A DNA stretch of 64,000 nucleotides from Nitrospiraceae bacterium (GTDB lineage: Bacteria > Nitrospirota > Nitrospiria > Nitrospirales > Nitrospiraceae), in contig JBQTHT010000009.1 in the NCBI GenBank assembly GCA_052389595.1, positions 207-64,206 of the forward strand, written 5' to 3'. The notes beneath the pieces are model-generated. The model saw nothing but the letters and a program-made list of their open reading frames with translations. It searched no databases and was not told where the DNA came from. This document shows, one piece after another, positions 943 to 20,672 of this stretch. The translations under genes were made by a program, and so were the position numbers. How positions within the stretch are numbered: position 1 is the stretch's first letter; every line of letters begins with the position of its first letter.

Positions 943-1791
943 TCATTGCGTCTCGCGCCGTCGCAACGCTCGCATCAACACCGGGTCATTCAGCGCAACT
1001 TCGCTCAACGCATCCATCAGATGAAGTCCTCGCTTGCCCACCAGATCTTTGGCCTTGTCATACTGAAGTCGGTTAAATCGGGCGACCGCCGGCTGGCCAT
1101 TGACGATCTGGCATGCCAAGACCTCGTCCTCCACGTCCAGGGTTCCTCCCTGCTCAATCAACGTCCTCGCTTGAGGAATGGAAATCTTATGAAGCGCCGC
1201 GAACTCCTCCATGCCCCCAGTTTCAATCAACCGCCCATCCGGCATGATGCAGAGGCGCTTGAAGTGTGGCGACCAATCCTTACGGAAGTCGATGTATTTA
1301 ATATCACCCCCTTGGGCCACGCTGCGCTCCAAGGTCCGGTAGTCAAGACCGAGGTTCTTTTGCTGAAGCTTGCCTTTCAATTCGTCCGACAACGTGCGAT
1401 GAAACACCTGTGCCGCAGCCTCATCGAGTGATATCCCCCGAGACCGGGCCCATTGCTCCGCCTCGGCAAATTGCATCAGGTCCAACACCCAGGTCTGTTT
1501 GGGGGTTGCTCCCGTGGGGTCGATACGGCAAGCAAACATCCCTTTTGTCACAATTCCTGCGACTTGGGGATACACATAAATGCCTCCCTCGGTCAGCAGC
1601 GAGGTCATGGTCTCGAGGCAGATATCATAACTCTCTGAAAGGACCCGAGCATGAGCCGCCAGATCTTCCTTCTCCGTCATCGCACAGACCGTGACATTCC
1701 CCGGGGCATCGAACTCCGTATAATCCTCAACGATGTTATACAGTGCCGGCGGCTTCTCTGACTTGGTTGGCTTCCGTTTAATTTTGTACAT
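943..1791 (-). CDS. hypothetical protein
   Basis: 282-aa ORF with ordinary amino-acid composition and no better competing frame. I recognise no family. Confidence 0.45.
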   Translation of the reverse strand: MYKIKRKPTKSEKPPALYNIVEDYTEFDAPGNVTVCAMTEKEDLAAHARVLSESYDICLETMTSLLTEGGIYVYPQVAGIVTKGMFACRIDPTGATPKQTWVLDLMQFAEAEQWARSRGISLDEAAAQVFHRTLSDELKGKLQQKNLGLDYRTLERSVAQGGDIKYIDFRKDWSPHFKRLCIMPDGRLIETGGMEEFAALHKISIPQARTLIEQGGTLDVEDEVLACQIVNGQPAVARFNRLQYDKAKDLVGKRGLHLMDALSEVALNDPVLMRALRRRETQ

Positions 1792-6777: not shown

Positions 6778-7095
6778 ATGGATATCGATGCTTTTCGTCA
6801 GATGGTCGCCAAGAATCCCCAAGGCTTTTTGGGACGTTACGGCCTTGGCAACAAGATCCTGCAGGAAGGCGGCAATCTCGAAGAAGCAGTTGATCATCTA
6901 CGCGTGGCCACAGAACTCGATCCCACGCACGTCGCTTCGCATCTCGCATTAGGGCGCGCCTTGGTGTCGGTGGGAAGAAATGAAGAGGCGAAACCGGTTT
7001 TGAAGGCCGGCATCGATGCCGCGCTTTCCGGTCGTTCCAGCGGGGGCGTGGATCTCGTTCCCGAGCTACGGACCCTGCTCCAACAAATAGGCTGA
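6778..7095 (+). CDS. TPR-repeat protein
   Basis: The TPR-like helices read MDIDAFRQMVAKNPQGFLGRYGLGNKILQEGGNLEEAVDHLRVATELDPTHVASHLALGRAL. The ORF is open from 6736; ATG 6778 is the preferred start. Confidence 0.55.
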   Translation: MDIDAFRQMVAKNPQGFLGRYGLGNKILQEGGNLEEAVDHLRVATELDPTHVASHLALGRALVSVGRNEEAKPVLKAGIDAALSGRSSGGVDLVPELRTLLQQIG

Positions 7096-7116
7096 GATGA
7101 ACCACGCGAGACACCC

Positions 7117-7320
7117 ATGACTCTGGATGAAGCACGGCAGCGCATTGAATCGGCAATCGAGCAATATGGCCAGCATGCGGGCATGGCTATCGATTTGGTC
7201 ATCAATGAAGTCAGCGGTGATCTTGGCCGGGAGAGCGCCAATACGCTGATCGAGGAGTTTGACCTTGAACTGCTCTATAACATCGCCCCCACGGATTCCC
7301 AAAGTTCGGGCAGTTTCTAA
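7117..7320 (+). CDS. small hypothetical protein
   Basis: 67-aa acidic ORF on the same strand as its neighbours and closely spaced with them. No family recognised. Confidence 0.3.
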   Translation: MTLDEARQRIESAIEQYGQHAGMAIDLVINEVSGDLGRESANTLIEEFDLELLYNIAPTDSQSSGSF

Positions 7321-7341
7321 CTCCGTGGGCGTCGTCCTTCC

Positions 7342-8448
7342 GTGCCATTGATCTGGTGCTCGATTTCCGGCCACGGGTTTGGCCATGCGGCGCAAATGGT
7401 CCCGGTTCTCAATCAGCTCGGCTCTCATCTCCCCCACCTGACGGCTCTTCTTCACACCACTGTTCCAGCCTCATTCTTCCACAACCGTCTGACCATCACA
7501 TGGGAGCGATTCCCGATCGAGCAAGATATCGGGTGCGTGCAACAAGACCCGCTGAAGATTGACGTCGAGGCCACGTGGACCGAGCATCAACGGTTTCATC
7601 GCGAATGGAACAGGAAGCTGGCTGAAGAAGAGGCCGCGATTCGCGCACATCGACCTGACCTCGTGTTCTCGGACATTTCCTATCTGGCTATCGAGGCGGG
7701 CGCCCGAGCCGGCGTGAAGGCAATCGCACTCGGATCCTTGTCATGGGATCTGGTACTCATGCCGTTTGTGCAGCGAGGCAACGGGGACCAGCAGAGATTG
7801 ATCGAATCGATTCAATGCTCCTACAGTCACGCCCAATGCCTCTTGCGCCCCACGCCGGGCCTATCGATGGAGGCATTCCCGCGTGTCATCGATATCGGCC
7901 CGATTGCTGAACCGGCCCGAAACGAAGCTGCTCGCCTGCGTGAAGCCATCGGAGCAGCGGCGACCGAGTGCATGGTGCTCGTGGGATTCGGAGGAATCTC
8001 CATGCAGACGCTGCCCTTCGCTCAAATGGAACAGATGACCACCTACCGGTTCGTGGTTGATGGGCCGGTTCCCGGCGAATGTCGGCGCGTCCATTCAGCC
8101 TCTGCCCTGCCCTTGTCCTTCAAAGTCCTGCTTGCCTCCGCCGACCTCGTCATCACCAAACCCGGATATGGCACGATTACGGAAGCCGTGACGCTTCACA
8201 AACCTGTGGTCTACGTCCGGCGCTATAATTTTGCAGATGAACAGTCACTCGTGGATTACCTGCACCGATACGGGCGCGGCGCCGAATTATCGACAGCAGA
8301 CTTCTTTTCGGGCAATTGGAAGAAGGCCTTGGAAAGTGCGAGAGCGGCGTCTCAGTCACTCGAACGTCCCCCTGCTCCGACCGGTGCTGCGGATGCGGCA
8401 GCACTGCTGGCAACATATTTGCGGAGCGCGGCTCGTTCATCTGCATAG
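7342..8448 (+). CDS. glycosyltransferase (GT1/GT28 MurG-like fold)
   Basis: N-terminal SGHGFGHAAQ and C-terminal ASADLVITKPGYGTITEAV...KP are typical of UDP-sugar GT-B transferases. Confidence 0.55.
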   Translation: MPLIWCSISGHGFGHAAQMVPVLNQLGSHLPHLTALLHTTVPASFFHNRLTITWERFPIEQDIGCVQQDPLKIDVEATWTEHQRFHREWNRKLAEEEAAIRAHRPDLVFSDISYLAIEAGARAGVKAIALGSLSWDLVLMPFVQRGNGDQQRLIESIQCSYSHAQCLLRPTPGLSMEAFPRVIDIGPIAEPARNEAARLREAIGAAATECMVLVGFGGISMQTLPFAQMEQMTTYRFVVDGPVPGECRRVHSASALPLSFKVLLASADLVITKPGYGTITEAVTLHKPVVYVRRYNFADEQSLVDYLHRYGRGAELSTADFFSGNWKKALESARAASQSLERPPAPTGAADAAALLATYLRSAARSSA

Positions 8449-8515: not shown

Positions 8516-9337
8516 GTGTGTTGGATTGCATGGTTTGTACGACTGGCTGCAAGAGGATTGGATTCACTCGGTCACATGTTTCAGTCGATCGCGTCTGTCC
8601 TCTACAGTCTGTTGCCCGCACTGCTCCCTCCAAGTCACTTAAGCCGCCTTATCGCACGGCACTATGATGTCAGCTATCAGGACAATATCAACGAGTTCAC
8701 TCCCGAGCTGTTCGAATGGGACTTGGACCAGTGGGAGCAGCATGCCTTGGATCGGCATCGGATTGAAAGGGGTCGCATACTCGTGCTGGGAGCGGGAGTG
8801 GGCCGAGAAGCCGTCGCTCTGGCGCGGCGCGGTCTGAGCGTGACCGGCATCGACGTGAATCATGTTGCGCTTCGCACGGCTCGTCGGGTAGCCTCTACAG
8901 CTCACGTTCAGGCTCAATTCATTCAGGCCGACTTTTTGAGGTTACCCTGCCGTCCCCGAAGTTTCGATTATGTGATGTTGTCCGGCATCATGTATAGCGC
9001 TATTCCTGGCCGTGAGTTAAGACAGGCCTGGGTCCGTGACCTTATCGCTTCGCTGCCCTCACGAGGACTCGCCATCTTGAACTTTATGATCGACCAACGC
9101 TCATCAACCAGAACCCAGCGGCTGAGCGGCATATTGACTGCAGTCATCATGAGGTTACCGGGTGCCAACCGCACGTTTCAGATGGGTGACACCTGCGCTC
9201 AAGCGCACTTTCTCCATGCCTTTCAAAACGAACAGGAACTGCGACAAGAGCTCACCATAGACGGGGTCCTCATTCGAGAATTGAACTGGCGCGAACGGTA
9301 TGCCGTCGTGACCTGCAAGACCACATCCCGCGAGTGA
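8516..9337 (+). CDS. class I SAM-dependent methyltransferase
   Basis: Motif I reads ILVLGAGVGREAVALARRGLSVTGIDV. The start could instead be the internal Met at 8576. Confidence 0.7.
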   Translation: MCWIAWFVRLAARGLDSLGHMFQSIASVLYSLLPALLPPSHLSRLIARHYDVSYQDNINEFTPELFEWDLDQWEQHALDRHRIERGRILVLGAGVGREAVALARRGLSVTGIDVNHVALRTARRVASTAHVQAQFIQADFLRLPCRPRSFDYVMLSGIMYSAIPGRELRQAWVRDLIASLPSRGLAILNFMIDQRSSTRTQRLSGILTAVIMRLPGANRTFQMGDTCAQAHFLHAFQNEQELRQELTIDGVLIRELNWRERYAVVTCKTTSRE

Positions 9338-9415: not shown

Positions 9416-9709
9416 TTGATCATGGAACACGTCTACGTGAAGAATTCTGACTTTGTCCAGCGCGATGTCGCGGGTGAGTGCATCCTCGTTCCAATCCGCC
9501 GTCAACTCACCGATGTCAACAGCATTTATGTCCTCAATGAAACCGGCGCCGCGCTCTGGCATCGCATTGACGGAAAGCGCTCCGTGCAGGATATCGTCGA
9601 GGAGGTGTGTCAGGAATTTGAGGTCACTGCCGACCAGTTGATGCAAGACTTTGCCACGCTCCTCGACGATCTTCGCTCCATTAAAGCCATCGAGAGTATC
9701 ACTCCGTAG
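9416..9709 (+). CDS. PqqD-family peptide chaperone (RiPP recognition element)
   Basis: 97-aa ORF with the PqqD pattern (V..R.V.GE.ILVP......YVLNETGA.LW..IDG.RSV.DIV..V..EF.V). It ends 4 nt before the first radical SAM gene. Confidence 0.8.
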   Translation: MIMEHVYVKNSDFVQRDVAGECILVPIRRQLTDVNSIYVLNETGAALWHRIDGKRSVQDIVEEVCQEFEVTADQLMQDFATLLDDLRSIKAIESITP

Positions 9710-9713
9710 TCCT

Positions 9714-10625
9714 ATGCATCACCTGGATGCACTGACGCATATTCCCGAACGGTTCCCGCTTGCCTGTCAATGGGAGATCACCTGCCGGTGCAACCTCCAT
9801 TGCGTGATGTGCTACACGGATTGTTTCAATCGCCCGGATAAGATTCGTGACGAGCTGCTCACTCATGAGATCCTTGAGCTCATGGATGAGCTGGCCGAGG
9901 CCGGCTGTTTGGAAGTGTGCCTGACCGGAGGTGAGCCGCTGGCCCGACCCGATTTTTTCGAGTTGTACGAGCGGGCCGTCAGGAAGGGATTTCTTGTCAC
10001 CGTCTTCACGAACGGGACGTTGATCACCAAAACCGCAGCCGACCGCTTCGCCGCTTTTCCGCCGCATCGCATTGAGATCAGTGTTCACGGTTTCGGGGAA
10101 GAGAATTTCGAGCAGGTCACGGCCGGACACGGATCCTACCAGCGCTGTATGAACGCGATTCGTCTCTTGCGTGAGCGACAGCTTCCGTTGATCGTAAAGA
10201 CGACTGCCATGACGGTCAACATGCCGGACGTTCTGAAGATCAAACGATTCGTGCAACAGCTCGGGTCTGTCGGTTACAAATTAGGCGAAGAGCTTCGTCC
10301 GACACTCGATCACGATCTGTCGCCTCTGCAGCTAGGCCTTTCGGCTGACCAACTCCAAGAATTGAATCGGGCAGACCCAGAACTTTGGCAGGAAGCATGC
10401 TGGAAACAGACCGTACTGCCCGCACCATGTCAAAGCGGGATCCGTTCGTTTCATATCGATGCCTACGGCTCTTTGCAGCTGTGTTCCGGGAATCGAACTC
10501 AGGGCTACGACCTTCGGAGCGGTTCCTTCGCAGAAGGGTTTTATCGCTACCTGCCGACGTTTGCCTGTGAATGGAAATCACGGCGTGCGAGTCTTCTTGT
10601 CAATCCAGCGACCAGCCATGCGTGA
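9714..10625 (+). CDS. radical SAM enzyme with a shortened (Twitch-like) auxiliary cluster domain
   Basis: It has a CNLHCVMC (CX3CX2C) motif and a GGEPL motif. The C-terminal region has C-x12-G-x4-C (PCQSGIRSFHIDAYGSLQLC) but no CX2CX5CX3C block. The start is placed at ATG 9714, in frame with ORF 9651-10625. Confidence 0.85.
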   Translation: MHHLDALTHIPERFPLACQWEITCRCNLHCVMCYTDCFNRPDKIRDELLTHEILELMDELAEAGCLEVCLTGGEPLARPDFFELYERAVRKGFLVTVFTNGTLITKTAADRFAAFPPHRIEISVHGFGEENFEQVTAGHGSYQRCMNAIRLLRERQLPLIVKTTAMTVNMPDVLKIKRFVQQLGSVGYKLGEELRPTLDHDLSPLQLGLSADQLQELNRADPELWQEACWKQTVLPAPCQSGIRSFHIDAYGSLQLCSGNRTQGYDLRSGSFAEGFYRYLPTFACEWKSRRASLLVNPATSHA

Positions 10626-11736
10626 TACTCGAACCATGGTTCCCATTGAATACAAGGATTTCAGCCGCACCATTCACGAAAATGCCGCGGCCCAGGATCG
10701 CGTGATCAAAGCGCAACTGGAACTCACCTATCGCTGCAATCTCCACTGCTTGCATTGTTATACCGACCCGTACAATACGAAGGAATTCTTTCCACGTGAA
10801 CTCACCTTAGCGGAGACCACGCGACTCATTGATGAAATGGTCGATCTGGGAATCATCTGGCTCAACTTGACCGGCGGCGAAATCTTTACGCATCCGCATT
10901 TCTTTGAGATCTACGAATATGCTCACCGTAGAGGCCTCTTGCTGATGCTGTACACCAACGGAACGCTGTTCACACAAGGCATTATCGAACGCCTCCGGCA
11001 GTCTCCTCCTTTTTCAATCGATGTTTCCGTTCATTCGGTCGACCCGGAGGCTTTTGATCGGTTCACCCAAGTTCACGGTTCGTTTCGAACGTTCATCAAA
11101 GGGATGGAGTTGTTGAAGAACAGCGGGCTGCCATTTTGTTTCAAGACCAAAGCGATGAATTGGAATAAAGATGAACTGCCTGAGATTGAACGGTTCGTGA
11201 CATCATTCGGCCAGCAGTTTGGATACACCACGTCGCTTTCCCCTCGACTGAACGGCAACCTCTCTTCACTGGCGTATCGTCTCACGCCGTCGGAGATTGG
11301 GGACATTGAGACACCACACGTTTCGGCGAATAACGATGGCGAGGCCTGCTGTGTCTCTGATGCACTTGGTCCTGCACAGAATGACCGCCTGTTCCGATGC
11401 GGCTGCGCCACCAACCAGATTCATATCAATGCGTGGGGAGCATTGGGCACCTGCACCCTGCAATACGAACGCCGCGTTTCTTTGCGTGAGCATGCGCTGA
11501 AAGAAGCAGTGGATAAACTTTTCCGAGACGTGCGCGCCCTTCGTTATGAAGGCGACTCTCCGTGCAGGCATTGCGCTATTCATCGATTTTGCGACAAGAA
11601 GCCCTCTGACGCGAACTGGGAACGCGGCCATCCGGAAGCGCCCATTCCTTACGATTGCGATGTCGCCTGGACTCGCGCCCAACGCATTTTCGGACAGACG
11701 TTGATCCATCCCCTGCACCTCCGGGTTAAGGGGTGA
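10618..11736 (+). CDS. radical SAM/SPASM-domain peptide-modifying enzyme
   Basis: It has a CNLHCLHC motif and LTGGEIF. The SPASM elements are GALGTC and CRHCAIHRFC (CX2CX5C). ATG 10618 overlaps the upstream stop (ATGCGTGA). Confidence 0.85.
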   Translation: MRDTRTMVPIEYKDFSRTIHENAAAQDRVIKAQLELTYRCNLHCLHCYTDPYNTKEFFPRELTLAETTRLIDEMVDLGIIWLNLTGGEIFTHPHFFEIYEYAHRRGLLLMLYTNGTLFTQGIIERLRQSPPFSIDVSVHSVDPEAFDRFTQVHGSFRTFIKGMELLKNSGLPFCFKTKAMNWNKDELPEIERFVTSFGQQFGYTTSLSPRLNGNLSSLAYRLTPSEIGDIETPHVSANNDGEACCVSDALGPAQNDRLFRCGCATNQIHINAWGALGTCTLQYERRVSLREHALKEAVDKLFRDVRALRYEGDSPCRHCAIHRFCDKKPSDANWERGHPEAPIPYDCDVAWTRAQRIFGQTLIHPLHLRVKG

Positions 11737-11743
11737 AAGGAGG
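11737..11743 (+). promoter_or_regulatory. Shine-Dalgarno AAGGAGG for the precursor ORF
   Basis: A perfect AAGGAGG lies 5 nt upstream of ATG 11749, directly after the rSAM stop codon at 11734-11736. Confidence 0.6.
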
Positions 11744-11748
11744 TTGCG

Positions 11749-11934
11749 ATGAGAGAGAAAAAATCCTACAGTCCTCCGCAACTCTTTCGAGTCGACTTGA
11801 ATCATGAGCAGGCGATCTTAAGCGCATGCAGCTTGATGGCCAGCAATCCTATGGCTGGAGGGATGGACATCTCTTGCCGTGCAGGAAGCTGTAAGAGAGC
11901 CGCGACGGGAGACAGCGGGCTGCGTCCATCCTGA
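11749..11934 (+). CDS. candidate RiPP precursor peptide (61 aa)
   Basis: The sequence is MREKKSYSPPQLFRVDLNHEQAILSACSLMASNPMAGGMDISCRAGSCKRAATGDSGLRPS. It has a strong RBS and sits inside the operon. It carries a YxxPxL motif (Y7, P10, L12), three Cys (27, 43, 48) and a C-terminal Ser. Confidence 0.6.
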   Translation: MREKKSYSPPQLFRVDLNHEQAILSACSLMASNPMAGGMDISCRAGSCKRAATGDSGLRPS

Positions 11935-11994: not shown

Positions 11995-12900
11995 ATGCGC
12001 ATTGATGTCCAGATTGCCGGATATACGATTCGCCTCGAAGAGGCCGCTGATCAGGCTTGCCTATCTTGGCCGCTCAGCCCGTTCGAATCGTTTACGACTC
12101 CATCCTCTGTTGCTCCGGACATTCATTTCGATGTCAGAATCGTGAAGGAACTTTCACCCTGCCGACTCGGTTCGTTGCGCTTCGATGCCTGTCACGGTCT
12201 CTGGAAATTGTTCGAATCCGACACAGGCTTGATCCTGGAATCGGCGGATACACGCACTCTTCAACCGCGACTCCGTGCGTATCTCACCACTGATTTTTCT
12301 CTCGCCGAGGTGTTGGCCTGCGAGCAACAGACGGATGGGATCACCGGCTGGGTTCCGATGCACGTTATCAATCCATTGATGGAAATCTGTCTTGTCACAA
12401 AGCTGGCACGGCAGGGCGGGATTCTGTTGCACGGATCCGGAATACTGGTGAGCGGCCATGGCACGATCTTTACCGGCCCTTCCGGAGCAGGAAAATCTAC
12501 CTTGTCCGCTTTCTTTGCAACCCAACAGGCCACCGTGCTCAGCGACGAACGAGTCATTCTTCGCAAGATGGGGGAAACAGTAGTCGTTCATGGAACTCCG
12601 TGGGTGGGGACCGGTTGCTATGCGAAGAATGAGTCGGGTCCTTTGACGCGACTGTATTGCATACGACATGGTCGCGACCGCCATCGTCTCGACCCGATGC
12701 TCCCTGGTGATGTCTTTCGCTTTCTCCTTCGCCAGTGCTATCTTCCTCACTGGGATCGAGACGCCTTGGACATGACGCTCCGTTTTCTTTCTCTGCTGAT
12801 TCAGCGCGTCGATTGCGCCGGATTGGCGTTTGTGAAAGATCCCGATATCGTAGAATATCTATCGCGCCACCCGCCCTCCCCATCCTTCGCGCTTTCATGA
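11995..12900 (+). CDS. HPr-kinase-related P-loop kinase
   Basis: LHGSGILVSGHGTIFTGPSGAGKSTLSAFF...LSDERV resembles the HprK C-terminal domain-like kinases found in RiPP clusters. Confidence 0.75.
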   Translation: MRIDVQIAGYTIRLEEAADQACLSWPLSPFESFTTPSSVAPDIHFDVRIVKELSPCRLGSLRFDACHGLWKLFESDTGLILESADTRTLQPRLRAYLTTDFSLAEVLACEQQTDGITGWVPMHVINPLMEICLVTKLARQGGILLHGSGILVSGHGTIFTGPSGAGKSTLSAFFATQQATVLSDERVILRKMGETVVVHGTPWVGTGCYAKNESGPLTRLYCIRHGRDRHRLDPMLPGDVFRFLLRQCYLPHWDRDALDMTLRFLSLLIQRVDCAGLAFVKDPDIVEYLSRHPPSPSFALS

Positions 12901-13952
12901 AGCACCTGAAGCCTGATGCCTGGTTGGAATCCGTCACGACGCGAGCCGCCATGCGACGCCGGCCGGAGGGCGTCACCTTCGAGCTGACCTATGGATGCAA
13001 TCTCCGATGTCTTCACTGCTATAACCCGACTCATCGCATCTTACCCGAAGAATTGACGACGGCAGAGGTTGGCGGGGTCCTCGAGCAACTTGCCGAGTTT
13101 GGTGTCCTGAGCATCACCTTCACGGGTGGAGAGCCGTCCGTGCGTCCCGATATTGCCACGATCCTGCGGCAGGCCCGTTCCCACGGATTCGTGATTCAAT
13201 TGTTGACCAACGCCACCCGCATCACGCCTTCTTTCGCCGATGTCCTGGTAGAGACTGGCATTCACCAAGTGAATGTTTCGATCTATGGCGCCACAGAGAT
13301 GACGTATGAACGAATGACCGGAATCCCTGGTTCCTACACACTGTTTCGACAAGGACTTACCTGTTTGGCCTTGCGACAAATATCGGTCAACGTGCGAATG
13401 CCGGTTACCACGCTAAATGAGCATGAAGTGCCGGCATGTCGCGCTCTGATCGAACCTTTTGGTTTCAAATTCCAATATTGCCTCGATGTCATGCCAAGGA
13501 CCAACGGCGACACAACTCCACTGCAATATCGGCTCAGTCCTGAGGCTAAACGGCGGATCGACCAAGCGATGCTCAACCGGTCGGCAGTTGCGATAGAAGA
13601 TCAATGTTCTTCAGATCGCCCGTTTATTGAGTGCGCCTGCGGCAAGACCCGCTTTGCGATCACACCCTATGGCGAAATGAATCTCTGTGTGGCTTTTCCC
13701 ATCCCGAGGTACAACCTTCGCGCAGGCTCGGTGAAGGATGGATGGGAGATCTTGAAGCAGACGGTCGACCATGCTAGGCCCAATGCCAACTATGAATGTC
13801 CGGCCTGTGAGGTGCGGTCTCACTGCCGCCAGGGCCGGAGCGACGCGTGGCTTGAAACCGGCGACATGAGCGCCTGCCTTCCTCATTTCAAAGACTTGGC
13901 TCGGTTGGAACAGACCACCTATGTTGCCATCGACTCTCGACCGGTTCGTTGA
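12897..13952 (+). CDS. radical SAM/SPASM-domain peptide-modifying enzyme
   Basis: It has a CNLRCLHC motif and FTGGEPS. The SPASM elements are GEMNLC and CPACEVRSHC. ATG 12897 overlaps the kinase stop codon (ATGA). Confidence 0.85.
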   Translation: MKHLKPDAWLESVTTRAAMRRRPEGVTFELTYGCNLRCLHCYNPTHRILPEELTTAEVGGVLEQLAEFGVLSITFTGGEPSVRPDIATILRQARSHGFVIQLLTNATRITPSFADVLVETGIHQVNVSIYGATEMTYERMTGIPGSYTLFRQGLTCLALRQISVNVRMPVTTLNEHEVPACRALIEPFGFKFQYCLDVMPRTNGDTTPLQYRLSPEAKRRIDQAMLNRSAVAIEDQCSSDRPFIECACGKTRFAITPYGEMNLCVAFPIPRYNLRAGSVKDGWEILKQTVDHARPNANYECPACEVRSHCRQGRSDAWLETGDMSACLPHFKDLARLEQTTYVAIDSRPVR

Positions 13953-14871
13953 GTCCTACGCGCAGGTCGGCGCCTTGAACACCAGAATTCTTGACCGGCT
14001 CGCTGCGGTCGGGATGCTGTTTCAGCGTGAACAGATTGATTTCCTGTTGTTGAAAGGCGCCGATCTGATTTCCCGCCTGTACGGCATACGGGGAATCAGA
14101 CCGCTCTCCGACGTGGATCTCCTGGTCCGAGAAAAAGATCTGCCACGCATTGATACCCTTCTTCAGTCTTCTGGATTTGTCCAGCAGATAGACGGTAATC
14201 CGGCCTATTGCTCACTGGCAGACCACGTGATGTTGGACATCACCACAGATCTCTGGTATCTCGACCAAACGGACCTTTCTAAGCTGTGGGAACGGGCCAT
14301 CCCGCGCCGGATCGGCGGCCGAATGATGAAATGCATGGGAAGTGAAGACCTCGTGCTGTATCTCACGGCCTATGCGGTGATCCATCGCGGACAGCTTTCA
14401 CCCTCCTTTTATACTGACCTCGCCTTGCTGCTTCAACGTGAACCGGTGGAATGGCCCATGATCAGTCAACGTGCTGCCCAGGGTGGGTTGAGAACGGCCC
14501 TGTATCATGGCCTCACCTCGTTGTCCCGGTCGGGATACCATCCCGTGCCGGATCGCTACCTTCAACAATTGGCGCCATCGACGATGTCCGAACGCGGTCT
14601 GTGGTTTCTTTTACGAAAGGTCGTGACGAAGGAATGGCTACCGGAGATCGGGCATGTTCTGCTGTTGCTCACCACTCCGGGTAGAAGGAAATGGCATCGA
14701 CTGTGGGCGCTTATCTGTCCTTCAACGAGATTCCTCGGTTATCGGTATGGGAAACAGGGCACTGAGCATGCCATCCGTACAAGAGTGGCGCGCCTGGGTA
14801 TACTCTTCGCTCGAGGCGTTCGATTAAGTATCCACCTTCTGATGTTGACCCTGACACCCACCCGGCGATGA
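13921..14871 (+). CDS. nucleotidyltransferase-family protein (PF14907-like)
   Basis: LLLKGADLISRLYG.....RPLSDVDLLVREKDL matches the uncharacterised nucleotidyltransferase family seen in lasso and kinase-associated RiPP clusters. It overlaps the upstream gene by 32 nt. Confidence 0.65.
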   Translation: MLPSTLDRFVESYAQVGALNTRILDRLAAVGMLFQREQIDFLLLKGADLISRLYGIRGIRPLSDVDLLVREKDLPRIDTLLQSSGFVQQIDGNPAYCSLADHVMLDITTDLWYLDQTDLSKLWERAIPRRIGGRMMKCMGSEDLVLYLTAYAVIHRGQLSPSFYTDLALLLQREPVEWPMISQRAAQGGLRTALYHGLTSLSRSGYHPVPDRYLQQLAPSTMSERGLWFLLRKVVTKEWLPEIGHVLLLLTTPGRRKWHRLWALICPSTRFLGYRYGKQGTEHAIRTRVARLGILFARGVRLSIHLLMLTLTPTRR

Positions 14872-15737
14872 TCCGGCTGCTTTGCCCAGACCCATTGCGC
14901 ACGGCTTTTTCAGCCGCCGACCTCACCCCCGTCACGGCTGCTGAACTGTCTCACCTGGTTGAATTTACCGTCACCAGCTGGAGCATGCTCCCGGCTATTC
15001 ATAAAGGTGATCGCGTGCGCTTCGAGCCGGTCGAGACACTCATGGTCGGCGACATCGTCGTGTTTCGCAAGGAAGGATCTCTTATCTGCCATCGAATTAT
15101 CGCCGTCACCGATACCGGCATGGTCGAAGTAAAAGGAGATGGTAACCAGGGAAGTGGGGAGGTCATGGCCCCGTCGCAGATACTTGGGAGGGTATGCGGG
15201 ATCGCTCGATCACAAGATTGTATTCCGAAACCATCTACAGGCAACCAGGACCGCCAGGTCGATCTCTTGGTCGTCGTCCTGCAGTATTGGGTCGCGTCGG
15301 TACGAGCGACGACGCTGGTAGCATGTGGCTGCTTGATTTCAGCTCTGAAACAATATGGGTGGATTTGCCGTCTCTTTTCGCATGCGACGAAGCAGAGCGT
15401 TCGCTTTTCCCTTAGCCGACGAGCGCCCCTGCAATCAATCCGGGGTTACTACAGAATGGGAGGACGGGGTCACCGCTTGCATGACCTCCTCCGGCTGATT
15501 CAAGAGCACGAGGTGGTGCTTGAAGCGCTGGTGGTCCAAGCTCACCTGGGACCTTACCCAATTGCCTTCTATCATCCCGCCTCCGGCGAACAGCATATCC
15601 GGCGTACGCTTCACGGATTGGGCATCGAAGAATGTTTCAACGTATTGGGACAGGCATGGCCTCGCTCGACCCGAGTCCATTGTCACCAAAAAGACCATCT
15701 GTTATCGGATCGCCAACAGTTTTCTTCCCTGCGGTAG
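14868..15737 (+). CDS. S26/S24-type serine peptidase domain protein with an unknown C-terminal half
   Basis: SWSMLPAIHKGDRVRFEP....VGDIVVF...GSLICHRII resembles the signal peptidase I / LexA-like fold. Its start overlaps the upstream gene (ATGA). Confidence 0.6.
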   Translation: MIRLLCPDPLRTAFSAADLTPVTAAELSHLVEFTVTSWSMLPAIHKGDRVRFEPVETLMVGDIVVFRKEGSLICHRIIAVTDTGMVEVKGDGNQGSGEVMAPSQILGRVCGIARSQDCIPKPSTGNQDRQVDLLVVVLQYWVASVRATTLVACGCLISALKQYGWICRLFSHATKQSVRFSLSRRAPLQSIRGYYRMGGRGHRLHDLLRLIQEHEVVLEALVVQAHLGPYPIAFYHPASGEQHIRRTLHGLGIEECFNVLGQAWPRSTRVHCHQKDHLLSDRQQFSSLR

Positions 15738-15875
15738 GGATTTCTCCCTTACCCGACTTTCTCTAAAATTTCTCTGTACTTAAGTATGCATCTCTTTGGA
15801 CGATCCGTCCGTAGAATGATATGATTGCGGCGTGTCCTTTACTTACGCAGTAGGGGCACCAAAAGGTTCGCTCGA

Positions 15876-16478
15876 ATGGAAGCTTCACCACAGCACGCCG
15901 CAACGTCCATTGACCCAAAACTGATTGCCCGCGTCGTCAAGGGTGATGCACATGCATTCACCCAATTGTACGATCAGTCCTGTTCGCTGCTATACACGTT
16001 GGCATTGCGTATATTAGGAAACCGCGATGAAGTGGCCGAGCTGCTTCAAGATGTCTATCTGGAGGTATGGCGCAAGAGCGCCCGGTACGATGTCGGACGG
16101 GGAACCCCGATCGCATGGCTTGTGACTTTAACCAGGAGCCGTGCCATTGACCGTTTACGAACCCGGGCTTCGCGTCCTCAGGCCGTGGCGGACTCGATGG
16201 ACAACCTCACGACGATTCATATTCCAGACCAGGGGCCGGGACCGTTTGAACATCATGCGGACACGGAAGTTCGCCATCAGGTTGCGAGCGCGCTCGGGGC
16301 GCTTCCCGCAGCGCAACAGCAAGCGCTGGAAATGGCCTTCTACGAAGGTTTGTCGCATGTGGAAATTGCAGCCCGACTCAATCAACCCTTAGGTACGATT
16401 AAAACCAGGATCAAGCTCGGCATGACCAAATTGCGAACGGCATTACGAGGCTGCTGGGACTTAGGTGACGAGCCATGA
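15876..16478 (+). CDS. ECF-type RNA polymerase sigma factor
   Basis: Sigma-70 region 2 reads LLQDVYLEVWRKSARYD......WLVTLTRSRAIDRLR. Region 4 reads LPAAQQQALEMAFYEGLSHVEIAARLNQPLGTIKTRI. Confidence 0.85.
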   Translation: MEASPQHAATSIDPKLIARVVKGDAHAFTQLYDQSCSLLYTLALRILGNRDEVAELLQDVYLEVWRKSARYDVGRGTPIAWLVTLTRSRAIDRLRTRASRPQAVADSMDNLTTIHIPDQGPGPFEHHADTEVRHQVASALGALPAAQQQALEMAFYEGLSHVEIAARLNQPLGTIKTRIKLGMTKLRTALRGCWDLGDEP

Positions 16479-17503
16479 CACACGAAGAACTGGACGAGGC
16501 AGTGGCGCTGTATGCAGTCGGCGCGTTGGATCGCGCGGAGCGGCAACTCCTTGAAGCACATCTGCTTTCGGGATGTTCCTCATGCCATGCCTCACTCAAG
16601 GAATATCAGGCCGTGGCCACGTTGCTTCCATTCGGTTTACCGCTTTCCTCGCCGCCGCGCGCGCTCAAAACCAAGATCATGGCGGCTCGCACGCCCGCGA
16701 TTCCGAGTCCGTCTGAGACTGTCAAAGAACCCGGCACACCAAGCCTAGAGCCGGGCGAATGGATGAATCATCTCTTCCCGCCGATCACACCCACTCGCTC
16801 TCTTCCGTTCAGATTTGCGATGGGTTTTGCCGCTTTAGCGATTGTTGCCGTGACAGGATATGTCGGGTGGTCCCTGTATTCTCGGGTGGCAACGGAAAGT
16901 GGAAAGGTAGAGCAGTTGCAAACGGCCTTACAAAAGGACACGACGAAGCTTGCCTCTTTTCAGCGGGAGCTGTCCGAACGGGAGACCGCCTTGGGCAGAC
17001 TGCGCCAGGAATTACAACAACGTAACACCGACATCCAGGAGTTTCGCGACATCGTGATCCAGCGCGAAGCGGAGTTGGACGACTTGCGTAACCAACTGGC
17101 ACTTCTGGAAAAGGCCTCCAGCGCAACGCGCAAAGGACGCTCACAGCAAGATGAATTGGCGACACTGTTGCGGGCGCCGGACGTGCGCGTCGTAACCTTA
17201 GCCGGATCGAGTATTGCCAAAGGCGCCAGCGGCTTGTTGCTCTACGATCCTCATACAAAGAAAGCATGGCTCTACGCCGTTAATCTCCCGGAATGTCCAA
17301 GTGGTACGATTTATCAAGTTTGGGGTATCGATGAGAAACCTGTGAGTGTCGATACGTTTCATATCGACACTGGGCAAACGGCGCATTTGTTGAGCAAGCG
17401 ATTACCCGACTTTCCCCGTATGAAACAATTCGCGGTCAGCCTCGAACCGGTCGGTGGCCGTCCCCAACCAACCGGCGCGATTTATCTTCAAGGTCAGCTC
17501 TAA
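16475..17503 (+). CDS. anti-sigma factor (zf-HC2 N-terminus, RskA-like C-terminus)
   Basis: LYAVGALDRAERQLLEAHLLSGCSSCHASLKEY is followed by a TM segment and a coiled-coil. The C-terminal part reads ...YQVWGIDEKPVSVDTF. Its start overlaps the sigma gene (ATGA). Confidence 0.8.
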   Translation: MTHEELDEAVALYAVGALDRAERQLLEAHLLSGCSSCHASLKEYQAVATLLPFGLPLSSPPRALKTKIMAARTPAIPSPSETVKEPGTPSLEPGEWMNHLFPPITPTRSLPFRFAMGFAALAIVAVTGYVGWSLYSRVATESGKVEQLQTALQKDTTKLASFQRELSERETALGRLRQELQQRNTDIQEFRDIVIQREAELDDLRNQLALLEKASSATRKGRSQQDELATLLRAPDVRVVTLAGSSIAKGASGLLLYDPHTKKAWLYAVNLPECPSGTIYQVWGIDEKPVSVDTFHIDTGQTAHLLSKRLPDFPRMKQFAVSLEPVGGRPQPTGAIYLQGQL

Positions 17504-18141: not shown

Positions 18142-18930
18142 CTATGACAACGTCGCGATAGCCCATCCATCGTCTCTTGGCCATTCTTGGTATGTGACGT
18201 CCCAATTCTCTCCTTCAGCCGCCACCGAACCGACATAGCCGGGCTTGACGGAAAGCGTTCGAATAAGCCAGGGGTTGCATGCATCCCTGCCTGATACATT
18301 GACTCGCGCCTTTCCGGAGACCAAAGAGATTTCACATTGACTCAAGGGAACGGAAAGACCACTGCCTCTGCCCTTCAGATAAGACTCCTTACAGGTCCAA
18401 TAGACAAAAAACAGCCGCTTGGCTTCGTGGGGAGGCTGCTGTCGAAGGCGCTCAAATTCAGTGGTTGAGAAGAAGCGCGCGGCCAGTGCCATCGCCTCCA
18501 CGTCGTCACGGAGCGCCTCAAGATCTACCCCGACTTCCCGTTCTCTTGCAAAGGCGAACAGACCCAGCTCGTGAGAATGAGACAGATTAAATTGCAGGCG
18601 CCCGGAAATATTCGAGGGATTATGAAGAAACGGTTTTCCCTGCGCCCCTGAACGAAACACCAGCGTGGAAGGCGCCAGACGTTCATAGAGACCCACGAGT
18701 GTCCGGAGAATTCCGTGCGCGGCGATAAACCGTATGCGGTCACATGGGAATACAAAGCGGCTCGCCCTCATGCGTTCATCGTCCGATAAAATCCGTTCGA
18801 GTTGAACGATCTGAGGTTCGGGGAGCGCCAACGAAGCCTGCCACACATGGACATCCGTCGACGTTATCTGATAGGGCTGAGAAGGAGGGCGATTCTGTGA
18901 AGGCTCGCTGATCATCTGCCGGCTTGACAT
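18142..18930 (-). CDS. Sfp-type 4'-phosphopantetheinyl transferase
   Basis: It has the FNLSHS, VGVDLE and WTCKESYLKGRG motifs. It is the last gene of the NRPS operon. Confidence 0.85.
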   Translation of the reverse strand: MSSRQMISEPSQNRPPSQPYQITSTDVHVWQASLALPEPQIVQLERILSDDERMRASRFVFPCDRIRFIAAHGILRTLVGLYERLAPSTLVFRSGAQGKPFLHNPSNISGRLQFNLSHSHELGLFAFAREREVGVDLEALRDDVEAMALAARFFSTTEFERLRQQPPHEAKRLFFVYWTCKESYLKGRGSGLSVPLSQCEISLVSGKARVNVSGRDACNPWLIRTLSVKPGYVGSVAAEGENWDVTYQEWPRDDGWAIATLS

Positions 18931-18960
18931 ACAGAGCGCTTATCTTGGTAATGGATTCGA

Positions 18961-20646
18961 TTAAGCATTCTGGACGGAACGCAAGACCCGATCGCGATAT
19001 GAAGACCCGCTCCACGACTCTACAATTTTCCCATCATTCAACTTTACAATTCGATCACCCAGATGGAAGTAGCGATCATCGTGCGTGATGACCGCTACGC
19101 CCTTGCCGCCGGCGCGTAGTTCCGGCAACAGCTCCTTGTAGAAGACCTCCTTGTATTGAGGATCCTGATCAGCCGCCCACTCGTCAAAGATATAGAATGG
19201 GCGGTCTTCCAGATAAGCGGTCAATAAGGCCATACGCCTTCGCTGCCCCTGCGACAAGTCCGTCGTGGAGAGACGTTCCCCAATGAGATGGACTTTATGA
19301 GCGATCTCGAGCCGGCGCAGATAATTTGTCGCGCGCTCATTCATGTGAGCGGAGTCCAGCCCCAGCAACTTCTCGAACAGATAAAAATCCGAGAATACCA
19401 CGGAGATGAGCTCCCGCAACCACTCTCGATTCGAGTCAGTGATCACTTGCCCATTGACACGAAGCGTGCCCGCTTGTGGGCGATACAATCCCGTTAATAC
19501 TTTGACCAAGGTAGATTTGCCGCTTCCGTTTCCTCCGACGACAAAGACCAGTTCGCCCGGCCTCAGATGGAAATCGAGGGGACCCAGCACAAACTGATTG
19601 TGCTCATCTTGAGGACCGTCGTGGTAGCGAAATACGATGCTCTCCAACTCGAGACCAACATCTGAACGAAGGACGGAAGTAGACGCCACAGGGCTCGCTG
19701 GTGCGTGCTCCGCTGAGTCAAGCGAGAGTCCCAGCGCATCGATCGTGTCCAGCGCGACCTGACCTCTGACCAAAGTCGGGAGCGTGCCGAGCACACCCCA
19801 CATGGGTCCCATCATATAGAGCATCGCGAAGACATACCCCGTGAGCGTTTCAGTCGGCAGCGCAAGATACTCGGGAAATATCAGGAGCACAGCGCCGATC
19901 AGACCATAAAACAGGACTTGTGTCCAGCCGTCTGCGACCAGGTATTGTTTCGTTGCAGCCAGGTTCAAATCTCGGAAGGTCAGCGCCGCTGGTCCAATCT
20001 CTTCGGAAAGGAACGCTTCGCGGCGACGCTTGTGTACCATCAATTCCTTGATGCCTTCGGTCAGGCTTCTGAAGTGATGGAAAAGGAGGCTTCGACGGTC
20101 CCGCGCGGCATGAATCACCGTGAACGCCCGATCATACAGCACCTTATAGGTCGCTGCGCCCACCATCGTCAAAACCAAAACCATCACGAACAGTTTCCAA
20201 GACAACCATGTCAGATAGACCGCGCACCCTGCGAGTATGGCTCCATTGATGACAAGACTGGGGACAGATTGCAGAGCCCAGGCGAGCGAGCTTACGTCGT
20301 CGGTGAGAGTCGCGAAAATGTGCGCCTGACCTTTCTTCTCCAATATTCGGAACGGCGCATTGGCGATGCTCGCGCACAGCTTCAGGCCAAGGTCCAGGAT
20401 CGTGTCTTGCGCGAAATACACGAGCCATAGCTGAGACAGTCCGCTTGTGACGATCTTCAAGATTGCTAGGCCGACAAATGCTAACGCCAGCGCTCTCGGC
20501 GCTCCTCCCGTCTCATGGAGCAAAGTATTCATCACCGCAAGAAGCCCTGCGCTGCAGAACCCCGAGAGAATACCGGCTACGATCAGCAGAGCCAGCCGAG
20601 GTTTGGATCCGCGCAGCAAAAACGAAAGGAACTTTCGAATATTCAC
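18961..20646 (-). CDS. cyclic-peptide-type ABC exporter (fused TMD-NBD)
   Basis: The N-terminal TMD resembles SyrD/PvdE-type cyclic peptide transporters. It has Walker A GGNGSGKST, signature LSQGQRRR and Walker B YIFDEWAADQD. Confidence 0.85.
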   Translation of the reverse strand: MNIRKFLSFLLRGSKPRLALLIVAGILSGFCSAGLLAVMNTLLHETGGAPRALALAFVGLAILKIVTSGLSQLWLVYFAQDTILDLGLKLCASIANAPFRILEKKGQAHIFATLTDDVSSLAWALQSVPSLVINGAILAGCAVYLTWLSWKLFVMVLVLTMVGAATYKVLYDRAFTVIHAARDRRSLLFHHFRSLTEGIKELMVHKRRREAFLSEEIGPAALTFRDLNLAATKQYLVADGWTQVLFYGLIGAVLLIFPEYLALPTETLTGYVFAMLYMMGPMWGVLGTLPTLVRGQVALDTIDALGLSLDSAEHAPASPVASTSVLRSDVGLELESIVFRYHDGPQDEHNQFVLGPLDFHLRPGELVFVVGGNGSGKSTLVKVLTGLYRPQAGTLRVNGQVITDSNREWLRELISVVFSDFYLFEKLLGLDSAHMNERATNYLRRLEIAHKVHLIGERLSTTDLSQGQRRRMALLTAYLEDRPFYIFDEWAADQDPQYKEVFYKELLPELRAGGKGVAVITHDDRYFHLGDRIVKLNDGKIVESWSGSSYRDRVLRSVQNA

Positions 20647-20672
20647 AGCCCATCCCTCAGTATCGAGTTCAC

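Follow-up and report, generated by a model that had tools for sequence, protein, structure and literature searches.

Among peptides that are synthesised by ribosomes and modified after translation (RiPPs), those of the lasso type have leaders in which the motif YxxPxL spans positions −17 to −12 (PMC10368454). In lasso clusters, HprK homologues act as kinases on the linear precursor and place a phosphate on its C-terminal Ser (PMC8498205, PMC6993621), the lasso kinase BsfK phosphorylates Ser3 instead (PMC10368454), and PsmN, annotated as an uncharacterised nucleoside triphosphate (NTP) transferase, is needed for hexoses on the phospho-Ser of pseudomycoidin (PMC6993621). The present study concerns a small open reading frame (ORF) at positions 11749–11934 of the plus strand of a 64,000-nucleotide stretch of Nitrospiraceae DNA (assembly GCA_052389595.1, contig JBQTHT010000009.1, positions 207 to 64,206; this whole stretch is referred to as the window). 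The ORF is very probably the precursor (A gene) of an undescribed RiPP family that depends on a RiPP recognition element (RRE) and on radical S-adenosylmethionine (SAM) enzymes and that includes an obligatory HprK-like kinase. The modifications would be Cys cross-links, phosphorylation and possibly glycosylation of the C-terminal Ser. The three radical SAM enzymes encoded around the ORF are referred to as rSAM-1, rSAM-2 and rSAM-3 (Table 1).

Comparison with Described Systems

Phosphorylated and phospho-glycosylated lasso peptides (paeninodin with PadeK, pseudomycoidin with PsmK/PsmN, and the Bradymonadales system with BsfK) share with the window system the YxxPxL leader, a stand-alone RRE of the PqqD/B1 type, an HprK-family kinase, a C-terminal Ser and an NTP_transf_5 gene. 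The window system differs from them in the absence of Thr at position −2 and of a ring-forming core, in the use of radical SAM/SPASM proteins as backbone-shaping enzymes, in its S24/S26-type peptidase, and in lacking both cyclase and B2 protein. Pfam screening of window ORFs (cluster and large flanking ORFs) gave neither a lasso cyclase (Asn-synthetase-like, PF00733-type) nor a transglutaminase-like B2 protease, and neither appears in the called genes of homologous loci (L001–L005 and L011–L013 for the cyclase). Membership of the lasso peptides was rejected on this gene content, and the lasso-type affiliation suggested in a first-pass annotation of the window, made from the sequence alone, was given up.

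Sactipeptide and ranthipeptide systems (AlbA, PapB, CteB/SCIFF-type) likewise have a radical SAM/SPASM maturase with an RRE and a short precursor with conserved core Cys residues, one enzyme probably making several links; in the window, rSAM-2 and rSAM-3 are SPASM-containing proteins encoded beside a Cys-containing precursor. In contrast to these systems, the RRE is a separate protein, the kinase is obligatory, and the peptide has only three Cys with long spacers (13–16, then 4–8 residues). The AlbA, PapB and StsB models scored 45–94 bits against cut-offs of 340–850, and no characterised maturase family (AlbA, PapB, StsB, SkfB and others) was reached, all scores lying far below the curated cut-offs.

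The SynChlorMet cassette (ScmC, ScmD, ScmE, ScmF; TIGR04248–04251) and the related Haft systems (GeoRSP, HPr-rel-A) resemble the window system in their HprK-like ScmC, PqqD homologue and radical SAM/SPASM enzymes, and homologues of the window kinase carry PF27840 ("ScmC"). The Scm scores, however, were far below cut-off (17.5 versus 125 bits for ScmC, 29.6 versus 100 for ScmD, 98.1 versus 400 for ScmE and 76.4 versus 400 for ScmF), also in the minimal cassettes described below, and in the window system a precursor is evident. To our knowledge, going by the TIGRFAMs description, no precursor has been identified for the SynChlorMet cassette. The pathways to pyrroloquinoline quinone (PQQ; PqqA/D/E) and mycofactocin (MftA/B/C/E/F/M) also combine a stand-alone PqqD-type chaperone with a PqqE/MftC-like radical SAM/SPASM enzyme and a peptidase and have no exporter, and glycosyltransferase-like (GT-like) and methyltransferase genes are found in Nitrospira as well. 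The window precursor differs in that it has no Glu...Tyr pair (Glu-x3-Tyr) and no C-terminal Val-Tyr; it has conserved Cys and a terminal Ser, and a kinase is present. The PqqE model gave 57–84 bits (cut-off 381) and the MftC model 89–105 bits (cut-off 265). Membership of SynChlorMet, GeoRSP, HPr-rel-A, PQQ, mycofactocin, AlbA, PapB and StsB was rejected because the curated models remained far below cut-off.

Precursor Gene and its Homologues

The ORF encodes 61 amino acids, MREKKSYSPPQLFRVDLNHEQAILSACSLMASNPMAGGMDISCRAGSCKRAATGDSGLRPS (translation read from the window), and its ATG at 11749 comes 12 nucleotides after the TGA of rSAM-2 (11734–11736). ORF, translation, ribosome-binding sequence AAGGAGG and gap agree with what the first-pass annotation had recorded, and the residues singled out there, namely Y7-x-x-P10-x-L12, the Cys residues C27, C43 and C48 and the C-terminal S61, are present in the translation.

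A single-sequence search with the window peptide gave 62 homologues (43–84 amino acids), with identities of 58–84% across the Nitrospira homologues. In a profile search, 555 matches were obtained at E≤10; the best 120 of the 555, which were the matches listed, all had E≤1.5e-24, and strong homologues thus number at least 120. All named sources are Nitrospirota, Nitrospiraceae or Nitrospira. In the alignment P10, R14, V15, L17, Q21, A22, I23, L24, S25, C27, S28 and C43 are invariant, and K4, K5, Y7, Q11, L12, F13, E20, A26, L29, R44, C48, K49, D55, R59 and S61 are conserved to at least 90%; the values for single positions are 98% for Y7, 100% for P10, 92% for L12, 95% for C48 and 97% for S61. 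The mean frequency of the top residue was 0.91 for residues 4–29 versus 0.61 for residues 30–54, that is, a conserved N-terminal block is followed by a more variable C-terminal part. A small ORF was found at the equivalent position of every homologous locus inspected, and the arrangement YxxPxL...C...C....C...S is conserved: Y7, P10, L12, all three Cys and the terminal Ser are kept.

Substitution rates were determined for 29 N-terminal codons in ten distinct genes, which came from nine loci. In these leader codons the non-synonymous rate (dN) was 0.05–0.22, and the synonymous rate (dS) was above 0.68 and mostly saturated in divergent pairs; third codon positions held 624 of the 934 pairwise differences. 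As judged from the sequences, a dN far below dS and the excess of third-position changes indicate a protein-coding gene on which purifying selection is strong; the strong ribosome-binding site likewise speaks for a real gene. The general features of a RiPP precursor are present, i.e., a small ORF accompanied by RRE and maturase genes, a conserved leader, a variable core and often multiple copies. The proposal of the first-pass annotation that the ORF encodes a precursor peptide was corroborated by its location between maturase genes, by tandem paralogues in places and by the conserved N-terminal block with its more variable C-terminal part.

No model was matched when the window peptide and five family peptides were scanned against Pfam and NCBIfam, and literature searches (themes SynChlorMet/ScmC, Nitrospira with radical SAM RiPP, and HprK with radical SAM) gave no paper describing such a system. 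The exact window peptide is absent from the protein collection, in which the adjoining HprK-like protein is present (P0063, 100% identity); the deposited record therefore probably lacks a call for the small ORF. The segment L24-S25-A26-C27 was also considered as the lipobox of a lipoprotein, a reading that was rejected because the preceding 20 residues are charged and do not form a hydrophobic signal peptide.

Synteny and Tandem Copies in Nitrospirota

Gene order in L001–L005 and L011–L013 is as in the window. In Nitrospirota it comprises genes for a tetratricopeptide repeat (TPR) protein, a 66-amino-acid protein, the GT-like protein, the methyltransferase, PqqD, two radical SAM enzymes, the peptide, ScmC (PF27840), a further radical SAM enzyme, NTP_transf_5, the S24 peptidase, an extracytoplasmic function (ECF) sigma factor, an RskA anti-sigma factor and tadA; beyond tadA, a phosphopantetheinyl transferase (PPTase) and an ABC transporter are encoded on the opposite strand. 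In the complete Nitrospira sp. genome AP038805.1 (L001) an insertion sequence element (DUF4096 and DDE_Tnp_1, 6826–7592) lies just upstream of PqqD in the position of the methyltransferase gene, and this locus is also without the S24 peptidase gene.

Tandem precursor copies occur in L004, L011, L012, L054 and L067, sometimes as two or three paralogues. Several Nitrospirota loci encode two tandem, divergent precursors, one of type A (ASNPMAGGMD..CRxGxCK) and one of type B (TTSxxNGG...). No second precursor copy was found in the window by a six-frame motif search; it holds one type-A copy only. In L012 (5508–11110) the genes for rSAM-1, the kinase, rSAM-3 and NTP_transf_5 are in fragments and both precursor genes are intact; the fragmentation could stem from assembly frameshifts or from decay of this cluster copy.

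Minimal Cassettes beyond Nitrospira

A cassette from Anaerolineales UBA6128 (L007) consists of genes for PqqD, one radical SAM/SPASM enzyme, a 53-amino-acid ORF and a ScmC-like kinase. The 53-amino-acid ORF, MEKKQAYQKPELRKVRLDVKTSVLNVCNTSMVNVEPMNQCQTMIGGCWYAVTG, has three Cys and shows Y7, P10, L12, V15, L17, L24 and C27 in the register of the window peptide. Since L007, like L006, was retrieved via its kinase gene and not via the peptide, it confirms the leader motif independently; the YxxPxL motif noticed in the first-pass annotation is thus upheld both by the conservation of Y7, P10 and L12 and by the common register.

Metagenomes were scanned with a degenerate DNA pattern of 39 bits, which spanned the window and L007 peptides and from which the Nitrospira F13 codon was excluded. 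The pattern specified Y, P, L, V, L, L and C27 but neither the other two Cys nor the terminal Ser. Fifty-six loci were obtained, of which about 53 contained ORFs of 50–65 amino acids belonging to the precursor family, most commonly of the form M..KKx-YxxP[QE]LT[KR]V.L[RK]PEEAVLGACK...GP...C....C...GS. When all sources were pooled (173 distinct sequences), exactly three Cys were present in 160 and a C-terminal Ser in 164, so that the occurrence of three conserved Cys in the putative core, first seen in the window, is the rule family-wide. The family shares the signature KK-x-Y-x-x-P-[QE]-L-x-[RKQ]-V-x-L-x-x-E-[EQ]-A-[IV]-L-x-[AV]-C. Behind it comes a variable region that contains two further Cys, and the peptide closes with Ser in about 95% of cases.

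The order PqqD, radical SAM enzyme, peptide, kinase was observed in every locus long enough to show it (at least 15 loci), and PqqD is present in every cassette with a visible upstream region. The cassettes often continue with an S24-like peptidase gene downstream of the kinase. The minimal cassettes are without rSAM-1, and most of them are also without NTP_transf_5. The tail after the third Cys measures 14–17 residues in Nitrospira-type peptides versus 5 in the others. This longer tail correlates with the additional enzymes of the Nitrospira-type cluster (rSAM-1, rSAM-3, NTP_transf_5, GT-like protein and methyltransferase), from which we infer that these act on the tail.

In L039 (3329–7249 and 11018–14080), L060 (4619–8245) and L062 (9206–10303) the minimal cassettes are flanked by genes for gingipain-like (Peptidase_C25) proteins that are very large, of secreted type and equipped with Ig/cadherin-like domains; L007 (8525–12067) probably has one of the same kind, and nothing comparable was seen in the Nitrospira cluster. 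These proteins may be alternative leader peptidases or functional partners of the minimal cassettes. A precursor-like orphan ORF, MKKPYEKPELTRVILKPEEAVLAACKTNNGGGPGGSACLGPRVAPCFAGGS, was noted on two phage-like contigs (L038, approximately 1606–1758, plus strand; L068, approximately 12356–12508, plus strand) with no PqqD, radical SAM or kinase gene nearby; the flanking ORFs match PHROGs for a DnaB-like helicase, a primase, a UvsX-like recombinase and a helicase loader. Phages may carry the orphan as a substrate of the host's maturation system or as a decoy for it. The peptide pattern was also scanned twice against viral contigs, without a match.

Cysteines and Radical SAM Enzymes

The three radical SAM enzymes of Nitrospira are mutual paralogues (28–34% identity; 34% between rSAM-1 and rSAM-2). 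Full SPASM motifs (CxxxCxxC plus CxxCx5C and further Cys) are carried by rSAM-2 (CNLHCLHC and CRHCAIHRFC) and rSAM-3 (CNLRCLHC and CPACEVRSHC); rSAM-1, which is specific to the Nitrospira-type cluster, has CxxxCxxC and a shortened, twitch-like auxiliary-cluster region without CxxCx5C. In most minimal cassettes the single radical SAM enzyme has its best match in rSAM-2, and in L006 and L007 it is rSAM-3-like. On these sequence relationships the rSAM-2-type enzyme encoded beside the peptide is regarded as the core, universal maturase.

In the first-pass annotation the three Cys had been matched to the three radical SAM enzymes, with one cross-link per enzyme. Eight minimal cassettes (L015, L033, L039, L042, L049, L060, L062 and L064) encode three-Cys peptides together with a single radical SAM enzyme, this being the only CxxxCxxC ORF in 5–14 kb. 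The logic of one Cys per enzyme therefore fails, and the match seen in the window is a coincidence of the expanded Nitrospira cluster. Among Nitrospira-type peptides, exactly three Cys are found in 114 of 124, and five-Cys variants occur.

Kinase and C-Terminal Serine

When the kinase was compared with 40 distant homologues (identity as low as 24%), H146, G161xSGxGKST169 and D184 were found unchanged throughout, and D184-E185 is invariant or nearly so. A sequence search of the PDB matched the kinase to HprK/P proteins only (E approximately 0.04). The AlphaFold2 model (predicted local distance difference test score 95.8) was matched best by Foldseek to HprK/P (1kkl/1jb1) and to PEPCK, with E values of approximately 1e-5 to 1e-6. 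The window kinase thus has the HprK/PEPCK-type P-loop fold with the His, the Walker A sequence GxSGxGKS(T) and the following Asp, and catalysis is predicted. At E≤1e-3 the kinase family has 8,789 representatives. That 95% of the peptide family have a terminal Ser fits the phosphorylation of C-terminal Ser known from the HprK homologues of lasso clusters.

Leader Recognition and Leader Removal

With the PqqD protein, the NCBIfam models lasso_PqqD_Bac and PQQ_PqqD each scored approximately 33 bits, below cut-off, and its only true homologues in the PDB are lasso B1 proteins (TbiB1 5v1u, 9x90 and TfuB1 6jx3). In the minimal cassette of L039, lasso_PqqD_Bac is the top NCBIfam match of PqqD (50.8 bits, cut-off 80). 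A PqqD-type RRE and a YxxPxL leader are therefore found together as in lasso systems, and binding of the leader is predicted.

The register of the lasso leaders, from which the first-pass annotation had derived a core starting near L24, does not apply. With Y7 at −17, A22 would take the place of Thr(−2) and D16 that of Gly(−8); core position 1 would be L24 and core positions 7–9 would be M30–S32, which offer no acidic acceptor, and the invariant block runs on to L29. Conservation in the wider family reaches [AV]-C-[KSN]. On the sequence comparison the leader/core boundary would fall within a few residues of C27. The S24/S26 peptidase is a candidate leader peptidase; the Ser of SxSMxP and the His of HR(I/V) are kept both in Nitrospira and in three minimal cassettes (L039, L033 and L042). 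Its kinship to the archaeal/ER-type signal peptidase I (TIGR02228) would favour a cut behind a small residue, such as L-S-A|C or S-A-C|S.

Proposed Maturation

In the proposed pathway the PqqD RRE would bind the leader through a YxxPxL/VxL strand, as the lasso B1 proteins do, and would hold the core ready for the maturases. Modification of the Cys core would then fall to the universal rSAM-2-type SPASM enzyme, most likely with several Cys-derived thioethers (of the sactionine or ranthionine type) formed by this single enzyme, and the HprK-like kinase would add a phosphate to the C-terminal Ser while the precursor is still linear. Further modifications would come, in the Nitrospira version, from rSAM-1, rSAM-3, NTP_transf_5, the GT-like protein and the methyltransferase, plausibly on the tail, which is longer by approximately 10 residues (K-x-A...GDSGxRPS); hexosylation of phospho-Ser as in pseudomycoidin may be among them. 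The leader would be cut off near L24–S28 by the S26/SipW-like Ser-His peptidase. The operon has no exporter gene, and in Nitrospira it is vertically conserved beside the ECF sigma and anti-sigma genes; taken together, these points suggest a physiological role rather than that of a strain-specific antibiotic.

Weighing of the Evidence

Several points speak against the interpretation as a kinase-dependent radical SAM RiPP. The positions Y, P, L, V, L, L and C27 were forced by the search pattern and do not constitute independent evidence in the metagenome set, and F13, R14, V15 and L17, which lie next to YxxPxL, are conserved at least as well as this motif. The placement of the leader/core boundary is imprecise. 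All system-specific NCBIfam radical SAM models (PapB, AlbA, StsB, ScmE/F, PqqE, MftC and others) scored far below cut-off, the putative thioethers are assigned from the conserved Cys and the SPASM class only, and the operon encodes no exporter or transporter. An Anaerolineales-type subgroup (L007, L049, L050, L052, L059, L060 and L062), with peptides ending in ...DPNL, ...DPDI or ...AVTG, has an intact Walker A kinase and no terminal Ser, so the kinase may have another or an additional target. The idea of the first-pass annotation that the C-terminal Ser is the target of the HprK-like kinase therefore stands in part: the residue is frequent and the neighbouring protein has the HprK fold and motifs, but the link is not absolute.

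A cofactor-type pathway like those of PQQ and mycofactocin is unlikely, though the most probable of the alternatives. In such a pathway the peptide would be a sacrificial scaffold, a few residues of which (for example the C-terminal Ser region or one Cys) would enter a small redox or metal-binding molecule, the rest being degraded. The stand-alone PqqD with PqqE/MftC-like radical SAM enzymes (MftC is the top NCBIfam match of rSAM-3), the GT-like and methyltransferase genes, which recall the glycosylation and methylation of mycofactocin, the operon without exporter and the vertical conservation of the cluster across Nitrospira beside housekeeping genes would all agree with it. The conserved positions, however, extend over approximately 35 residues (C27, C43, C48, tail and S61) instead of forming a short terminal motif, the PqqE and MftC models are far from their cut-offs, and peptide products are the more usual setting for divergent tandem paralogues (types A and B). 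The division of labour in which every radical SAM enzyme cross-links a Cys of its own, three enzymes for three Cys, is less probable still. Its attraction lies in the exactly three radical SAM genes of the Nitrospira-type cluster and in the prevalence of three Cys in its peptides; it is contradicted by the single enzyme of the minimal cassettes, by the five-Cys variants and by the missing full SPASM domain of rSAM-1. Known sactipeptide and ranthipeptide maturases, moreover, each install several thioethers.

That the peptide is not a substrate at all but a small Cys-containing accessory or regulatory protein, such as a metal or Fe-S carrier or a subunit of an enzyme complex, is very unlikely. 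The identity across the Nitrospira homologues is unusually high for a RiPP precursor, a basic residue is conserved after Cys (C43-R44, C48-K49), and the orphan copy on a phage-like contig is without any maturase; on the other side, the gene is wedged between the RRE/radical SAM pair and the kinase, and bipartite conservation, tandem divergent copies, a conserved terminal Ser and a co-conserved peptidase are hallmarks of precursors. A lasso precursor of the paeninodin or pseudomycoidin type can practically be dismissed: the motif YxxPxL, the B1-like PqqD with lasso B1 proteins as its nearest solved homologues, the HprK-like kinase, NTP_transf_5 and the C-terminal Ser would suit it, but no cyclase or B2 was found in the screened window ORFs or in the called genes of Nitrospira-type loci, Thr(−2) is absent, and no plausible register places Gly, Ala, Ser or Cys at position 1 and Asp or Glu at positions 7–9.

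Operon and Neighbouring Genes

The genes around the precursor, from the GT-like gene to the ECF sigma/anti-sigma pair, form one tightly packed operon on the plus strand (Table 1).

Table 1. Coordinates of the precursor gene and of the associated features in the window.
Feature	Position	Strand	Remarks
Conserved 67-amino-acid acidic small protein, ends ...SQSSGS	7117–7320	+	directly upstream of GT-like gene; tblastn with 66-amino-acid gene of L004: 64% identity, E 6e-25
GT-B-like putative glycosyltransferase (weak assignment)	7342–8448	+	TIGR00661 2.8e-08, PF04101 9e-04, both below cut-off; syntenic gene of approximately 360 amino acids in L004, L011, L041
SAM-dependent methyltransferase	8516–9337	+	PF13649 1.2e-13, PF08241 5.9e-11; syntenic in L003, L004, L011–L013, L041
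Stand-alone PqqD-family RRE (peptide chaperone)	9416–9709	+	PF05402 2.2e-17; start uncertain, TTG 9416 or ATG 9422
rSAM-1, radical SAM	9714–10625	+	PF04055 3e-26; start 9714 from 303-amino-acid length of homologues
rSAM-2, radical SAM/SPASM	10618–11736	+	PF04055 1.1e-22; immediately upstream of peptide
Shine–Dalgarno sequence AAGGAGG	11737–11743	+	directly after rSAM-2 stop; 5-nucleotide spacer to precursor ATG
Precursor, leader part (approximately residues 1–26)	11749–11826	+	KK patch, Y7xxP10xL12, R14 V15 L17, E20 Q21 A22 I23 L24; putative boundary, ± few residues
Precursor, putative core (C27–S61) and stop codon	11827–11934	+	C27, C43-R44, C48-K49, D55-S-G-x-R59-x-S61
ScmC-type HprK-like P-loop kinase	11995–12900	+	homologues carry PF27840 ScmC; immediately downstream of peptide
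rSAM-3, radical SAM/SPASM	12894–13952	+	PF04055 7.5e-23
NTP_transf_5 "uncharacterised nucleotidyltransferase"	13921–14871	+	PF14907 4.9e-31; Pfam family as annotated for PsmN-type lasso tailoring genes
S24/S26 (archaeal/ER-type signal-peptidase-I-like) peptidase	14868–15737	+	TIGR02228 2.3e-12 (47 bits vs 51.85 cut-off), PF00717 3.9e-07; C-terminal extension of approximately 170 amino acids
ECF sigma factor	15825–16478	+	PF04542, PF08281
RskA-type anti-sigma factor	16475–17503	+	PF10099

A small gene of the 66-amino-acid type follows the TPR gene in L001, L004, L011 and L012; the corresponding 67-amino-acid protein of the window is a syntenic neighbour, and its membership of the peptide system is uncertain. 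The GT-like and methyltransferase genes are accessory genes of the Nitrospira-type cluster. The ECF sigma/RskA pair, syntenic in L001, L002, L004, L011–L013 and L041, represents conserved neighbours and possible regulators of the cluster. No terminator-like site was found when an attenuating terminator was sought 3′ of the peptide gene (fold z-score 0.0).

Convergent with the operon, the region 18142–29942 (minus strand) encodes a non-ribosomal peptide synthetase of 3,089 amino acids with three AMP-binding, two condensation and three peptidyl carrier protein domains and a thioesterase, accompanied by an ABC transporter (18961–20646) and an Sfp-type PPTase (18142–18930); PPTase and ABC genes also adjoin the RiPP cluster in L004, L011 and L013. 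In the ORF at 33631–34977 (minus strand) a ketopantoate reductase with both ApbA domains (N- and C-terminal) is followed at the C-terminus by part of a molybdopterin oxidoreductase (PF00174, residues 350–437); the ORF may be a fusion or two merged reading frames.

Significance

Nitrite oxidation in soils, waters and wastewater plants is mainly due to Nitrospira, to which the comammox organisms of these habitats also belong. A modified peptide that is kept throughout this genus beside an ECF sigma/anti-sigma pair would represent unexplored nitrifier biology. For the many cassettes of PqqD, radical SAM/SPASM enzyme and HprK-like kinase the family supplies a concrete substrate, and none had turned up in Pfam, NCBIfam or the literature searched. 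The pair of lasso-style YxxPxL leader and RRE, together with the kinase/NTP-transferase tailoring module, would be re-used here outside lasso peptides, and the four-gene minimal cassette is tractable for heterologous reconstitution.

We put forward tentatively, as a good possibility that still falls somewhat short of a probable one, that the precursor founds a new RiPP class in which lasso-type leader recognition and tail tailoring (HprK kinase with or without NTP_transf_5) are joined to radical SAM/SPASM cross-linking of a three-Cys core, and which is widespread in uncultured bacteria as the four-gene minimal cassette and expanded and vertically inherited in Nitrospira. If this is true, the precursor shows where to seek precursors in the large orphan family of ScmC-type kinase cassettes, and the peptide may act in nitrifiers as a physiological factor (metal-binding, redox or signalling) under ECF-sigma control.

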